A DNA stretch of 64,000 nucleotides from Escherichia phage ECML-183-2: sequence record OL631481.1. One strand, given 5' to 3'. The notes beneath the pieces were generated by a model, which saw nothing but the letters and a program-made list of their open reading frames with translations, had not been told where the DNA came from and searched no databases. Each line of letters opens with the position of its first letter. The stretch's first letter is position 1. Below are positions 783 to 62,142 of this stretch, in pieces. Position numbers and translations under genes: made by a program.

Positions 783-1330
783 TATTTGTCCCTACGATAA
801 AAAGAAACAGGTCCGTAATTTCGCAAATAATTAACGTTGCGGGTATTACGATCAACACTTGCAACATTACCAAGACCATTCACAGAGTTAGGATCGCTGT
901 TTACTCGATCAATCTCACGAGCATCCACACCGCCAATAAGAACTTTACTGGTTGCTCCTCGTCCTGCCGTGCACCCAGGAATGACCATAAGACCATTTAA
1001 ATAGTTATGATAGATATCTTCCCACGGAGACTTATAAGTTACTTGACCGTTGTTAAATTTAACTTCAACTTCGACTTCACCCATCTTTTCTCTGCGGGAC
1101 ATAGCTCCTCCTGTTTGAGTACTGTTGTTAAGAACATCGTTGTTCCATAGATACTCTAAAACAGAAATCAAGCTGTTCCACAATACTGCACACTTATCCT
1201 TATCTTCATTCCCTATGATATCAATCCAAGTTTGGATGATCTGAATCAGCATTGCATCTGGCAATACTTCTTGAGAAGGGTTATAAACAAGAATTCGGAT
1301 CAGTGGTGCCAACTCTACCGCATTCAGCAT
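782..1330 (-). CDS. hypothetical structural protein
   Basis: 182 aa ORF; stop/start abutting neighbours in the morphogenesis operon. Confidence 0.5.
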   Translation of the reverse strand: MLNAVELAPLIRILVYNPSQEVLPDAMLIQIIQTWIDIIGNEDKDKCAVLWNSLISVLEYLWNNDVLNNSTQTGGAMSRREKMGEVEVEVKFNNGQVTYKSPWEDIYHNYLNGLMVIPGCTAGRGATSKVLIGGVDAREIDRVNSDPNSVNGLGNVASVDRNTRNVNYLRNYGPVSFYRRDK

Positions 1331-1339
1331 AAGCCCACC

Positions 1340-1738
1340 TTATTTTTTACGAAGGGAACGTTTTTTAGCTGGAGTGTCTACCGCTTCTACTTTTAAAACT
1401 TCTTCTTTGATTTTTACAGGTGCATAGTCTTCGTAACTTACAAGATAGTAACCCATGTGTTCTTCACTTGCAAAAGGATGCACAAGAATACCTGTTTCTT
1501 CTCTCAAACGCGTGAGGAAGTGAATGAAGTTTCCACCTAATGCAATACGACCATCTTTCAGATAGAAAGACATTGGTGGCGCAGATACTAATGTTTTATC
1601 AGCATCGATCAGTGGTGAAAGCGATTCGAAATCACGAATCATTTCGTGATAACTAAAGTAACGTTTCAATTCTGGGTTTGACATATCAATCTCCTCGTTG
1701 TAAACTCTTATTGTAAACAGAAAAGGCTCGCCCATCAC
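1340..1738 (-). CDS. hypothetical protein
   Basis: 132 aa ORF immediately downstream of the capsid gene. Confidence 0.5.
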   Translation of the reverse strand: MMGEPFLFTIRVYNEEIDMSNPELKRYFSYHEMIRDFESLSPLIDADKTLVSAPPMSFYLKDGRIALGGNFIHFLTRLREETGILVHPFASEEHMGYYLVSYEDYAPVKIKEEVLKVEAVDTPAKKRSLRKK

Positions 1739-10145: not shown

Positions 10146-10224
10146 TGGAGGCGGGAATTGGATTTGAACCAATGATCTCCAGCATATGAAACTGGCGAGG
10201 ACGACCAGACTCCTCTATCCCGCT
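10146..10224 (-). tRNA. tRNA-Met(CAT)
   Basis: hand-folded cloverleaf: anticodon loop TTCATAT, T-arm ATTGG-TTCAAAT-CCAAT, encoded CCA; position 1-72 is an A-C mismatch. Confidence 0.6.
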
Positions 10225-12057: not shown

Positions 12058-12132
12058 TGGTGGCCCTGGCTGGTTTCGATCCAGCTACCTATCGGTTATG
12101 AGCCGACAGCTCTCCCATTGAGCTACAGGGCC
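12058..12132 (-). tRNA. tRNA with CAT anticodon (Ile2-lysidine type or elongator Met)
   Basis: acceptor GGCCCTG/CAGGGCC, D-arm GCTC-AATGGGA-GAGC, anticodon loop CTCATAA, T-arm GCTGG-ATCGAAA-CCAGC, CCA; overall resembles bacterial tRNA-Ile2. Confidence 0.7.
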
Positions 12133-21680: not shown

Positions 21681-22559
21681 ATGTTTGTAAAATCTTTTAA
21701 ATCCGCTCTGCCTATGGTTGTTGGTGACAATGCTTCTGTAGCATCCCTTAACAGCATTACAGATATTCCTCTGGAATTTGTAACAGCAGAAGGCTCCCAG
21801 TCACACACTATCGGTCTTGTTCGTTTCGAAGATGACTCTAAATTTGTAAAAGAGTTTTCAGATCTTGAACTGCTTAATGTAGGTCAATCTGTGAAGAAGG
21901 TAGATAAAAAGAAAGTTAAACGTATTCTGAATGAACGTCTAGAAGAAATGCGTCAGGACATGGAGAGCGAAGGTAAAGAGTTTTATGTCGATAAAGAAGT
22001 AGTCAAAGCAATGAAAGAAGATATTGAATTTGCACTATTGCCTGAAACAGAACCTGAAGATTTCTTTAACTATGTTGTCTTGGATAAAACTACGAATCTT
22101 CTTTATGTTCTTAATGGAAGTAAAAAGGTTGCAGAAGAGATTACTTCTTTCCTCCGTTCCGTCCTGGGGACTTTCCCTTCGGTAGGTTTTAGTGTGCACG
22201 AAGAAGCTATTGTAAAAGGTTTTGGTGAATTGCTGGAGAATCACGAAGCAGATCGTATTACTCTCGGAAATTATATCAAAATGGAGGATAGCGAGGGCGT
22301 TGTTGTTTGGAGTAAAGAATCTCTATACGAGTCTAAAGCTGTAGAACTAAAAGAAGATGGTAAAGATGTTGTTGCAATCGGTCTTGAATATGACGGTGTT
22401 GTAGATTTTGTAGTGGATAAAGAGTTTAAACTTTCTAAACTACGTTTTCCGAAATATTTTGCAGACGAAGAAGGTAGTATTGAAGCTTCAGTCCTTCTGT
22501 GCTTCAATGAGATTCGAGGTCTGATGGAAGATTTAACCAAAGCAACAATCCTTAAATAA
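21681..22559 (+). CDS. RdgC-like recombination-associated protein (putative)
   Basis: 292 aa; N-terminus and FLRSVLGTFPSVGF segment resemble bacterial RdgC (from memory, not aligned). Confidence 0.4.
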   Translation: MFVKSFKSALPMVVGDNASVASLNSITDIPLEFVTAEGSQSHTIGLVRFEDDSKFVKEFSDLELLNVGQSVKKVDKKKVKRILNERLEEMRQDMESEGKEFYVDKEVVKAMKEDIEFALLPETEPEDFFNYVVLDKTTNLLYVLNGSKKVAEEITSFLRSVLGTFPSVGFSVHEEAIVKGFGELLENHEADRITLGNYIKMEDSEGVVVWSKESLYESKAVELKEDGKDVVAIGLEYDGVVDFVVDKEFKLSKLRFPKYFADEEGSIEASVLLCFNEIRGLMEDLTKATILK

Positions 22560-22563
22560 GTTC

Positions 22564-22592
22564 TTGACTTGCGGGATTAGTTATGATATTAT
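22564..22592 (+). promoter_or_regulatory. sigma70-like promoter (TTGACT-N17-TATTAT)
   Basis: hexamers read directly; followed by hairpin GCCTACC...GGTAGGC plus T-run at 22593-22621. Confidence 0.5.
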
Positions 22593-22631
22593 GCCTACCT
22601 ACTTAATGAGGTAGGCTTTTTAGGAGGCGTT

Positions 22632-22841
22632 ATGAAAAAGATTCTGACAGTCGTTCTTTTAGCTTTTAGTTTCACAGTAGCAGCAGGTCAAATTACTTTA
22701 ATCTTGTCTGATTCTGAAGTTAATGGCAACACAAAATATTGCTACTATTCTAACGCTAACCAAGATGAAGTTATAGCAATCCCGAAAAGTCGTCAATGTC
22801 CGTATACTAAAACATTCTCAACAGAGGATGACGATGAATAA
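22632..22841 (+). CDS. small secreted protein
   Basis: N-terminal signal-peptide-like segment, 69 aa. Confidence 0.45.
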   Translation: MKKILTVVLLAFSFTVAAGQITLILSDSEVNGNTKYCYYSNANQDEVIAIPKSRQCPYTKTFSTEDDDE

Positions 22842-22853
22842 TTAGGGGGAAAT

Positions 22854-23972
22854 ATTAGCGGTTATATTTTAATTAAACCTGAAGATCTTCATTTATATGT
22901 CAACGAAGAAACAGTAGCTGCAATTGATTATGATCAGATCGCTTTCCAAGCAGCGTCTGCATTAGAGAAAAGAACAATCATTGCCAAGCACATCCCTTCA
23001 GGTGCTCAAAAGGAATTTAAAAATAAGACAGAGTTTTGGGGTAAAAGTAAGACTAAAATTGGAGGTTGGCTAGGAGATACAAATGCAGAAAGAGCCTCCA
23101 AAAACAAACGTCCCTTCACAAAGGAAGAGTTCGAAATTATTGATAAGCAATACCCGCCAGAAGATATCGGACACACCTTCCAAGCAGCTAAAACAAAAGT
23201 CTTAGGTATTCTAAAACATCTACGTTTAGAAAAATATTGCGGAGTTATTGGCGTAGGAAAAACTTTCAGACACGCCTTCAAAATGCCTGTAGAATATAAG
23301 TCTGAACGATTAGATATCAAACCACTTCAGCTTTCAGAAACCAAAGATTATCTTGTGGAGTTCCACAATGGTGATGTTGTTACTGTAATAGAGGCTGACG
23401 ATGAGTTAGAGAAGTATGGTTTCCAAGGTTATAAAGATTATAAAAGGACGGGTAAATTTTCTTATATTGTAGTGTCTATAGATAAAGATAGTTTACATAC
23501 TCCTAGTATCCTTTTTAATTTCTACAAAGAGGATGGAGTATTTAAAAATCCAGATATAATTCTTATTGACGAGTCTATTGGCGACATATGGATCGTAGAT
23601 AAAGGTAAAAAGAAAGAAGTTAAAGGTTGGGGAAGTTATTGGTTAGCCTATCAGATGCTAATGGGAGATAAAACAGATAGTATCCGACCTTATCAAGATT
23701 TTGATATTAAGTTTGGAGATATTACTTGTTTTAATCTTCTCTCAGCTTGTAAAACTCAAGCAGAGCTTTTCCAAACAGTTAAAGATACTTACTACTCGTG
23801 GTTCCCAGATGGTGTTAATTTTACTTCTTGGGATGGAGAAGAAGTCCATATGACAACAGACGAATGGATAGAAACAATTTTCCAGTTGGTATACATGAAA
23901 CGCTGGGATAATGACGATACAACATTTGAGAGTATGCTTCAGTCATACATCTCACAACAGGAGGCAGAGTGA
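22854..23972 (+). CDS. 5'-3' exonuclease / flap endonuclease (RNase H-like FEN family); start codon uncertain
   Basis: IDYDQIAF N-terminal motif, EADD, LMGDKTDSI (H3TH-like); conserved N-terminal domain lies in open frame 22842-23282 with no ATG/GTG/TTG. Confidence 0.5.
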   Translation: MSGYILIKPEDLHLYVNEETVAAIDYDQIAFQAASALEKRTIIAKHIPSGAQKEFKNKTEFWGKSKTKIGGWLGDTNAERASKNKRPFTKEEFEIIDKQYPPEDIGHTFQAAKTKVLGILKHLRLEKYCGVIGVGKTFRHAFKMPVEYKSERLDIKPLQLSETKDYLVEFHNGDVVTVIEADDELEKYGFQGYKDYKRTGKFSYIVVSIDKDSLHTPSILFNFYKEDGVFKNPDIILIDESIGDIWIVDKGKKKEVKGWGSYWLAYQMLMGDKTDSIRPYQDFDIKFGDITCFNLLSACKTQAELFQTVKDTYYSWFPDGVNFTSWDGEEVHMTTDEWIETIFQLVYMKRWDNDDTTFESMLQSYISQQEAE

Positions 23973-24928
23973 GCAGATTAACAGAAGAGCAGAAAGCAGA
24001 TATCCTTAGTATGAGTGCAGAGGGTATGTCTTCTCGCAATATTGCAGCAATTGTTTTAGGTAGTCCAACAAGAAAAAGCACAGTAAATGATTTCCTTGCA
24101 CGTTTCGGTGCAAGTAAACAAGAGCCAGTTAAAAAGAAACAACCAGTTATTAAAATTATTGATGTTGAAACTGCACCAGAGATTGCATATACTTTCCGTC
24201 GATTCAAAGCCTTCATTTCTCCAGACCAGGTAATTCGTAGGGGTTATTTGTTATCTTACTCTTCTGCTGATTTGTATACTGGTGAAGTGGAAGGTAAGAA
24301 CTTGTCTTCTTATCCTCTTTTTGATATTGATCATACAGATGATTGGGAGCTTTGCCAAGATCTTTGGAACCTTCTGAATGAGGCAGATGTAGTTGTGGCA
24401 CACAACGGGTATAAGTTTGACCGTGCATACATTAACCAACGATTTGCATATCACGATATGGCTCCTCCTTCTAATTATGTAGTTGTTGATACATTGAAGG
24501 CAGCTAAGAAACAATTTGCACTTCCTTCCAACTCCCTTAAAGAAATGGGAGCATATTTCGAAACAGAAAGTGAAAAACTGGATAACGAGGGGTTCCCTTT
24601 ATGGAAAGCATGTTGTGAAGGTGATCGTGATGCTTTTGAACGTATGCAGATTTACAATGATGGCGATGTTGTTTCACTCCGTGATTTGTATATGAAAATC
24701 CTTCCGTGGATTCCACAGCATCCTAACTTATCCGCTTATTACCCAGATGAGAAAGTCCGTTGTTCTCGTTGCGGCAGTGATCATGTTCACGTTGTTACTG
24801 GTAAGCAATACCACACTGCGGTAAGTTCTTTCGATATCATTCGTTGTGAATCTTGTGGAGGTTTGTCACGTAGTAGAGCAAACACCAGATCCAAAGATAA
24901 ACGAGCAGCAACTATTATTGGAATCTAA
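23969..24928 (+). CDS. DEDDy-type 3'-5' exonuclease with N-terminal HTH-like and C-terminal zinc-finger-like regions
   Basis: Exo I IIDVETAPE, Exo II VVAHNGYKFDRAY, Exo III YNDGD; CSRCG...CESCGG. Confidence 0.5.
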   Translation: MSRLTEEQKADILSMSAEGMSSRNIAAIVLGSPTRKSTVNDFLARFGASKQEPVKKKQPVIKIIDVETAPEIAYTFRRFKAFISPDQVIRRGYLLSYSSADLYTGEVEGKNLSSYPLFDIDHTDDWELCQDLWNLLNEADVVVAHNGYKFDRAYINQRFAYHDMAPPSNYVVVDTLKAAKKQFALPSNSLKEMGAYFETESEKLDNEGFPLWKACCEGDRDAFERMQIYNDGDVVSLRDLYMKILPWIPQHPNLSAYYPDEKVRCSRCGSDHVHVVTGKQYHTAVSSFDIIRCESCGGLSRSRANTRSKDKRAATIIGI

Positions 24929-61449: not shown

Positions 61450-61671
61450 CTACTCCGCAAGAACCTTCACTTCGTCAGAGAAGAATACGTAATCACAACC
61501 TTCCCAAACATCTTCTTCAAACCACTCCCATCCCTCGACTTTGGACATTTCTTCTATCGTAACAAAGAATGTTGTCATATCCTCACTAACAAGATGTGCT
61601 TCAACAACAAAAGGAATCTGAACATTCTCAAAACCAACATAACCCAATACATCACAAACTCTAATTTTCAT
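61450..61671 (-). CDS. hypothetical protein
   Basis: 73 aa. Confidence 0.4.
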   Translation of the reverse strand: MKIRVCDVLGYVGFENVQIPFVVEAHLVSEDMTTFFVTIEEMSKVEGWEWFEEDVWEGCDYVFFSDEVKVLAE

Positions 61672-61672
61672 A

Positions 61673-61873
61673 TTATGCTCCTCTGTAGATTATGTTGGTG
61701 CGTTCACACTCTGCTACCAGCAAGCGATTAGCAATGTTATCCATAGGAACATCAATCTCTACACTCCAGGCATTGATACACACTTCTTCAATCTTTGCTC
61801 CCAACGTTTGTGCGATCAGAGCAACAGCCCCAGCATATTCAAGTTTAATCTCAATTACCATTTTGCACCTCAA
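61673..61873 (-). CDS. hypothetical protein
   Basis: 66 aa. Confidence 0.4.
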   Translation of the reverse strand: MRCKMVIEIKLEYAGAVALIAQTLGAKIEEVCINAWSVEIDVPMDNIANRLLVAECERTNIIYRGA

Positions 61874-61875
61874 GG

Positions 61876-62142
61876 TTATTTGTCTTGCTTGTATCTTACA
61901 AGGCGATCACACTCCAGGTCAAGAAATTTCTCCGCATTTCGTTCATGTTTGAGCACAATACATTGTTCTTTCCAGTCTGTAGCTCTTTGCTGCGCTGCTC
62001 CTGGGTCAAAATCCCAAAGCCATGCCGCGAAAAGAACAACTACCCAAAGCCATACCGCGAAAAGAACAACTATAACAATTACTAAGAAACTAAACACTAT
62101 TGGCATTGCACATCCTCCTGTGTAGCATGATCTTTTACCCAT
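61876..62142 (-). CDS. membrane protein
   Basis: 88 aa with hydrophobic stretch IVFSFLVIVIVVLFAVWLWVVVLFAAWLW. Confidence 0.4.
   Translation of the reverse strand: MGKRSCYTGGCAMPIVFSFLVIVIVVLFAVWLWVVVLFAAWLWDFDPGAAQQRATDWKEQCIVLKHERNAEKFLDLECDRLVRYKQDK

Follow-up and report, generated by a model that had tools for sequence, protein, structure and literature searches.

By which codon is a gene read when its open frame runs for 147 codons without a single ATG, GTG or TTG? The question is raised by an exonuclease gene of Escherichia phage ECML-183-2 (sequence record OL631481.1), of which we analysed a stretch of 64,000 nucleotides (nt), called the window here and used for all positions given. 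Judged by its sequence, the window is a Phapecoctavirus genome, from a phAPEC8/ESCO13-like E. coli myophage of the subfamily Stephanstirmvirinae; the 1.7 kb surrounding the exonuclease gene are 99.5% identical to Escherichia phage ESCO13, and 64 phage records match them at 95% identity or more, almost all of them under the label Phapecoctavirus. We find the gene to be conserved, of full length and without a canonical start; in its clade, a near-cognate codon is retained after a strong Shine-Dalgarno (SD) element. With a comparison of these relatives, we propose that an intact gene for a 372-amino-acid exonuclease of the FEN superfamily occupies positions 22854-23972, its translation very probably beginning at the ATT at 22854.

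A reading frame without a canonical start codon

An initial annotation, made from the letters alone, had noticed a frame that opens at 22842, directly after a TAA (22839-22841), and closes with the TGA at 23970-23972. Our reanalysis recovered the same limits, and likewise the absence of any in-frame ATG, GTG or TTG from the 147 codons between 22842 and 23282, the first being the ATG at 23283. The three protein stretches reported at the same time, AIDYDQIAF, EADD and LMGDKTDSI, are present as residues 23-31, 180-183 and 269-277 when numbered from ATT 22854. Canonical start triplets account for 5.4% of the codons of four genes nearby and for 3.9% of those in the 3' part of the exonuclease gene, frequencies from which a run of 147 codons without any would be expected with a probability of about 3e-4 to 3e-3. 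The window contains 49 stop-to-stop frames with 150 codons or more, and the exonuclease frame is the clear outlier among them; the next ones, with 57 and 55 start-less codons (1682-2659 and 61643-62125), were set aside as antisense shadows of minus-strand genes. Selection against canonical triplets in codons 1-143 was also considered and rejected, since relatives have a GTG or TTG among codons 7-33. As the lack of these triplets is not conserved among relatives, their absence from codons 1-143 in Phapecoctavirus is probably a matter of chance.

The start-less stretch has the marks of coding sequence. Against seven relatives, codons 1-143 show nonsynonymous divergence (pN) of 0.16-0.34 versus synonymous divergence (pS) of 0.64-0.91, the same pattern as in the 3' part of the gene. 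All relatives with 50% identity or more have the frame open, and the other two frames of the 5' stretch contain 9 and 13 stops. By these comparisons, the first 143 codons are under purifying selection. In an AlphaFold2 model of the protein, predicted strands at residues 16-25, 93-100 and 127-137 all lie N-terminal to M144, the methionine encoded at 23283; a product of 229 amino acids starting at M144 would thus lack three strands together with the first acidic motif.

The initial annotation had called the product a FEN-family 5'-3' exonuclease. At the level of the superfamily this holds; Pfam gave no detection in the window protein, where the search returned no relevant match, PF02739 included. 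Among 65 homologues, PF02739 is matched by 15 (best E = 1.7e-6) and PF01367 by one. The window protein matches PHROG 107, named 'exonuclease' (E = 9e-56), and weak tblastn matches lead to annotated exonucleases of 44-45 kb phages, taken to be T7-like. On the PHROG match, the scattered PF02739 matches and these weak similarities, the protein was placed in the FEN superfamily as a remote branch of the T7 gene 6 type, with a predicted exonuclease activity. T7 gene 6, T5 D15 and T4 RNase H are phage 5' nucleases of the same superfamily, to which the similarity is too low here for PF02739. These T7, T5 and T4 genes start with AUG.

FEN-superfamily nucleases coordinate their catalytic metals by clusters of conserved carboxylates, and such clusters are seen in the alignment: D25, E180, D182, D183, D210, D212, D272 and D275 are invariant in the 65 homologues and D27 is nearly so, D25 and D27 both being invariant in a 12-sequence alignment (A1). 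A search of solved structures with the 12-sequence profile returned marginal matches only (E = 0.055). In one such weak profile match, at this same E value, the stretch LMGDKTDSIRPY, a candidate helix-3-turn-helix motif (GDxxDN-I/V-PG type), is paired with LSGDKADNIPG from the plastid 5'-3' exonuclease 9l56. Since sequence matches to solved structures were marginal, a comparison of folds was needed. The AlphaFold2 model of the 372-amino-acid protein (mean predicted local distance difference test, pLDDT, 96.3; predicted template modelling score, pTM, 0.90) has a predicted PIN-like alpha/beta nuclease fold, and Foldseek agrees. The solved FENs matched by the model count 239-317 amino acids, so that the phage protein is some 80-120 residues longer; additional elements are predicted between its first two core strands.

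The start site and its conservation

The initial annotation had pointed to an SD-like GGGGGA just before ATT codons at 22854 and 22866 and had named AUU initiation as one possible solution. The element is there, as GGGGG at 22845-22849 followed by A at 22850, and a further in-frame ATT lies at 22872. The energy of the SD duplex is -9.3 kcal/mol for ATT 22854, -2.4 kcal/mol for the later ATTs 22866 and 22872, and +0.4 kcal/mol for ATG 23283. AUU initiation is accordingly well supported at the first of these codons, which has a strong SD 4 nt upstream, is homologous to the initial methionine (M1) of distant relatives and is near-cognate throughout the clade; ATT 22866, 16 nt from the SD, makes a poor candidate. 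Relatives have TAGGAGG or TAGGGGG at the place of the SD. The features of the locus are collected in Table 1.

Table 1. Sequence features in and around the exonuclease gene of the window
Feature	Position	Strand	Basis or remark
Sigma-70-like promoter: TTGACT, 17-nt spacer, TATTAT, TG extension	22564..22592	+	Consensus scan 10/12, pattern match only
Terminator-like hairpin GCCTACCT...AGGTAGGC then TTTTT, closing the upstream RdgC-like gene	22593..22616	+	Scan
69-amino-acid open reading frame with signal peptide and acidic tail (...TEDDDE)	22632..22841	+	Open reading frame list; its TAA 12 nt before the ATT
Shine-Dalgarno element AGGGGGA	22844..22850	+	Duplex with 16S rRNA 3' end, -9.3 kcal/mol
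ATT, inferred initiation codon	22854..22856	+	4 nt after the SD; clade comparison; ESCO13 annotation
Full-length gene, predicted 372-amino-acid FEN-superfamily 5'-3' exonuclease, T7 gene 6 type	22854..23972	+	
First acidic motif D25-Y-D27, 350 nt before the first canonical start	22926..22934	+	Alignment of homologues
ATG (M144), start in most automatic annotations, judged an internal Met	23283..23285	+	No SD, +0.4 kcal/mol
Acidic motif E180-A-D182-D183	23391..23402	+	E180, D182, D183 invariant
Acidic motif D210-K-D212	23481..23489	+	Invariant
G271-D272-K-T-D275, putative helix-3-turn-helix type GDxxD motif	23664..23678	+	D272, D275 invariant
DnaQ-like 'DNA polymerase exonuclease subunit', downstream of the exonuclease	23969..24928	+	Open reading frame list, RefSeq annotation

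With a search of phage records, IMG/VR and metagenomes, we obtained 137 loci with a match reaching the N-terminal part of the protein. In each distinct 5' region, SD strength was scored for the in-frame ATG, GTG, TTG, ATT, ATC, ATA and CTG codons between the upstream stop and the position of D25. In the clade, whose members are 49.6% or more identical to the window protein, the codon with the best SD is near-cognate in all 22 distinct 5' regions (ATC in 10, ATT in 7, ATA in 4 and CTG in 1). It stands at the position homologous to 22854, where a canonical codon was found in none of the 22. Before D25, 17 of these regions have no canonical start at all, and the remaining five have one 6-20 codons downstream without an SD. 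The near-cognate codon itself lies behind an SD of -9.3 to -12.9 kcal/mol in 21 of the 22. Two arrangements among the relatives mark the limits of the frame closely. Four lineages (L014, L105, L106 and L109) share the order aggagg(ag/at)TAA ATC, in which an in-frame TAA directly precedes the codon, so that the frame opens exactly there. Escherichia phage ETEC-TG (L185) has six Gs versus five in the SD run (equivalent to 22845-22849), and the extra G sets a TAG three codons before the ATT, with the downstream sequence unchanged.

The near-cognate clade forms a monophyletic group in a neighbour-joining tree, with several switches among the four codons and none to a canonical one. More distant 5' regions, from Vequintavirinae and beyond, have ATG, GTG or TTG at the homologous N-terminus behind an SD in nearly all cases; in four exceptions (L176, L142, L163 and L069) the scorer chose a near-cognate codon, with an ATG or TTG within 1-7 codons. 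The Vequintavirinae orthologues (rV5-like, SSE121-like and KaOmega-like) are 37-43% identical to the window protein over the full length and share its N-terminus and motifs, but differ in having an ATG, GTG or TTG start and a different upstream gene. In this sister clade the starts are ATG in 17, TTG in 11 and GTG in 9 of 38 distinct 5' regions; loci with these starts include L008, L029, L034, L039 and L120-L125. TTG and GTG together thus account for 20 of 38, versus the approximately 17% of E. coli genes that begin with GUG or UUG (10.1101/063800), a difference hinting that weak initiation may be favoured across the wider exonuclease family. Orthologues starting at the equivalent of 23283, which the initial annotation had named as the observation that would speak against a longer gene, did not appear in the comparison: the orthologues do not start there.

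The codons found in the clade have a counterpart in measurements on the host species. When all 64 codons were measured in E. coli, AUA, AUC, AUU and CUG formed a distinct group at 1-2% of AUG, and the remaining 57 codons initiated below this group (Hecht et al., 10.1101/063800). The codon set of the clade consists of exactly these four best non-canonical E. coli initiators. The only confirmed non-canonical starts in E. coli are those of infC, for initiation factor 3 (IF3), and pcnB, for poly(A) polymerase I, both AUU (10.1101/063800). The AUU or AUC of infC is the target of IF3 autoregulation (He et al., PMC5499595), and the near-cognate start of both genes is thought to set or regulate their output via IF3 discrimination (10.1101/063800; PMC5499595). 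The exonuclease gene resembles infC and pcnB in its conserved near-cognate codon behind an SD, AUU in these genes and AUU or AUC in infC homologues. Unlike them, it is a phage nuclease gene whose clade uses AUU, AUC, AUA and CUG, and a probable second cistron whose start follows the upstream stop by 8-16 nt. By this comparison, the locus is a new and unusually well-conserved case of the known phenomenon of near-cognate initiation, with one prior database annotation, that of ESCO13.

Weighing the alternatives

Four features taken together carry the argument for ATT 22854: the stop codons that flank it, the SD, its homology to M1 and the absence of any competing start. Codon turnover alone is no proof of initiation, since a conserved internal Ile or Leu would also show ATT, ATC, ATA and CTG. 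Other points weigh against our interpretation as well. The SD of one clade member (L133) is weak, at -4.2 kcal/mol; at 4 nt, the spacing before ATT 22854 falls near the lower limit of what is usual; and the literature yields no N-terminal proteomics or ribosome profiling for this phage group. The exact first codon, an N-terminal formylmethionine (fMet), low expression, coupling to the upstream frame and sensitivity to IF3 are what we infer from these patterns. For low expression, coupling and IF3 control, infC calls for caution: it has an AUU start and yet provides about 5,500 IF3 molecules per cell (PMC5499595), a fairly high expression, so that a near-cognate start alone does not mean low output. 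The review by He et al. also warns that low output does not always follow from a rare start codon (PMC5499595).

Several other readings of the locus have to be set against an ATT start at 22854. Translation could begin at another, downstream ATT (22866, 22872 or 22923), or by re-initiation after the upstream frame independently of any particular codon. In-frame ATTs do occur before D25 at codons 5, 7 and 24, residues 5 and 7 are conserved Ile, and translation of coupled genes is known to re-initiate after a nearby stop. However, the downstream ATTs have no usable SD (-2.4 kcal/mol, at 16-22 nt from the G-run), and the first codon alone is homologous to the distant M1 and placed directly after the SD in all clade members, which leaves this reading improbable. 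The thought that the true product is the protein of 229 amino acids from ATG 23283, the upstream 441 nt being a decayed or non-coding remnant, has in its favour that this ATG is the first canonical start codon and that the shorter form is called in 12 of the 15 listed members of the protein's 90%-identity cluster. It is the form annotated in the records of anhysbys, UP17 and iGC_PHA_EC001, as also in those of the Klebsiella Stephanstirmvirinae phage phi1_175008 and of phAPEC8 (AFU62693.1). Against it stand the absence of an SD at 23283, the purifying selection on the part upstream and the frame that stays open in all relatives of 50% identity or more; moreover, the shorter protein would lose the invariant D25, the nearly invariant D27 and three predicted strands, and M144 itself is replaced by a residue other than Met in several homologues. 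A product of this length is very improbable, and the N-terminally truncated gene that the initial annotation had considered is excluded by the pN/pS pattern, D25 and D27, the confident model of a FEN fold and the missing SD.

In the window, the 69-amino-acid frame and the exonuclease lie in the same frame with one TAA between them, and the exonuclease could for this reason be imagined as a fusion made by read-through of TAA 22839-22841 or by frameshifting. Among clade members, though, the offset between the two frames is 0, 1 or 2 (2 in phi92), two in-frame stops (TAG ... TAA) intervene in four lineages, and in ETEC-TG the stretch separating the two frames is 1 nt longer. A signal-peptide-like upstream product also suits a DNA nuclease poorly, and no suppressor tRNA is found among the 10 phage tRNAs in the window; we give a fusion even less credit than the shorter protein. 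The chance that a sequencing or assembly error conceals a normal start codon, as the initial annotation had also suggested, is practically nil. Only the anomaly itself speaks for an error, whereas the segment 22826-22885 is 100% identical in 53 phage records that were sequenced independently and 95-99% identical in 11 others, two of which were inspected and both keep the ATT. Relatives at 50-83% protein identity are equally without a canonical start; the identical records and the recurrence of the same arrangement in every diverged relative exclude an error. Transcriptional slippage on the G5A3 run was rejected as well, the relatives having AGGAGGT and no homopolymer there.

Gene neighbourhood, expression and significance

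The exonuclease gene sits within a replication and recombination module, in the order MazG-like pyrophosphohydrolase, RdgC-like protein, 69-amino-acid open reading frame with a signal peptide, exonuclease and DnaQ-like gene. The GTG start of the DnaQ-like gene overlaps the exonuclease stop as GTGA, and the Cys-rich C-terminus of its product (CSRCG...CESCGG) suggests a zinc ribbon. The counterpart of the small upstream frame in phi92, gp086, is annotated with a signal peptide. In all 21 tabulated clade loci, the near-cognate start is preceded, at a distance of 8-16 nt, by the stop of a frame of 66-83 amino acids, as called from the first canonical in-frame start; the N-terminus of its product is hydrophobic and resembles a signal peptide. 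Most of these frames end in an acidic tail (...DEDDE; window, L004-L016 and L104-L117). In the ATC subclade, the TAG within TAGGAGG serves as the stop of the upstream frame. Sister clades that start canonically lack a small signal-peptide frame and carry other upstream genes, for example an HNH endonuclease.

With a promoter-like site and a terminator hairpin upstream of the small frame, the exonuclease is probably a second cistron. The promoter-like site abuts the hairpin, and a transcript from it would begin inside the hairpin. The site may drive the small frame, the exonuclease and the DnaQ-like gene, perhaps as one unit. As the stop of the small frame is 12 nt upstream of the ATT, ribosomes finishing it would be released on or beside the SD and could re-initiate; the initiator tRNA would then read ATT 22854, and the product would begin with fMet. 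The arrangement of strong SD, weak codon and adjacent stop fits a coupling by termination and re-initiation, with the upstream frame as the probable partner. Since the four codons work at about 1-2% of AUG and are subject to IF3 discrimination, the start codon probably keeps the nuclease, potentially harmful to the cell or to the phage's own DNA, at a low level, and its synthesis would perhaps depend on upstream translation and on IF3.

A bolder possibility is that the arrangement is a regulatory device under clade-wide selection, in which termination upstream would gate the synthesis of the nuclease through 70S re-initiation and the condition of the host's initiation machinery, set by the ratio of IF3 to ribosomes or by guanosine tetraphosphate (ppGpp), would tune it. 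The SD overlapping or abutting the stop of the small frame would, in such a device, time or dose the nuclease during infection; we consider this unlikely at present. A structured regulatory element was looked for and the idea dropped: RNAalifold predicted no pairs in 13 diverse clade sequences (-45 to +44 around the start), the single-sequence fold around the start was only mildly better than shuffles (z = -2.15), and no Rfam family was matched in 22400-23400. More speculatively still, an odd tRNA-Met(CAU) of the phage's own might take part in a relaxed selection of start codons. The window encodes a tRNA-Met(CAT) of 79 nt at 10146-10224 on the minus strand, with an unpaired A1/C72 in the acceptor stem (ARAGORN), an initiator-like trait; its anticodon stem is without the three G-C pairs typical of bacterial initiators. 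A second tRNA-Met(CAT), at 12058-12132, has the look of an elongator tRNA or of one of the Ile2 type.

Public records treat the gene in diverse ways. The GenBank entry of ESCO13 (KX552041.2, protein AQM50955.1) and its RefSeq copy give a coding sequence from exactly this ATT, with a ribosome-binding site feature at the equivalent of 22848-22850; the ESCO13 genome announcement makes no mention of the ATT start. The literature on non-canonical or AUU phage starts, on ESCO13 and on phAPEC8 gave no description of this start or of its conservation, and the 'AUU' of an SPP1 paper proved to be an entry in a codon-usage table only. In the 22-member 90%-identity protein cluster, one member is a 372-amino-acid protein starting at this codon; one 229-amino-acid form of the cluster is seen on 385 contigs. 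The annotation of phi92 places the start of gp085 (L004, position 685) at an internal GTG that lies downstream from the D-x-D motif, and remarks 'No RBS identified'. The annotated start of phiWec179 is a TTG 11 codons downstream of the inferred one, and in vB_Eco_PATM (L183) the gene is split, a spurious antisense coding sequence, 'putative exonuclease' (1322-1546, minus strand), lying over its 5' part. The annotations of phi92 and vB_Eco_PATM are artefacts that arose because a canonical start is missing. The host label of three records is doubtful on sequence grounds: 'Campylobacter phage B15', 'A145' and 'A110a' (MG065650.1, MG065645.1 and MG065689.1). B15 matches the exonuclease region like Phapecoctavirus genomes, with 99.5% DNA identity, and A145 and A110a match like Justusliebigvirus, with 77% protein identity and 83% over a 53-nt segment, respectively.

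Nearly all sampled public entries give a truncated 229-amino-acid 'exonuclease/RNaseH', and some a start at an internal GTG or a split gene. A simple rule would correct these records, namely to begin the gene at the Ile or Leu codon that follows TAGGAGG by 4-5 nt, and it concerns phages that are widely isolated for phage therapy and biocontrol, the Stephanstirmvirinae. The locus offers a rare natural case of a near-cognate start maintained over deep divergence, to about 50% protein identity, even as the codon shifts among four. The clade as a whole allows an evolutionary test of whether initiation that is weak or sensitive to IF3 is selected for, and its members form a tractable E. coli phage system in which a coupling-dependent initiation at codons other than AUG could be studied.

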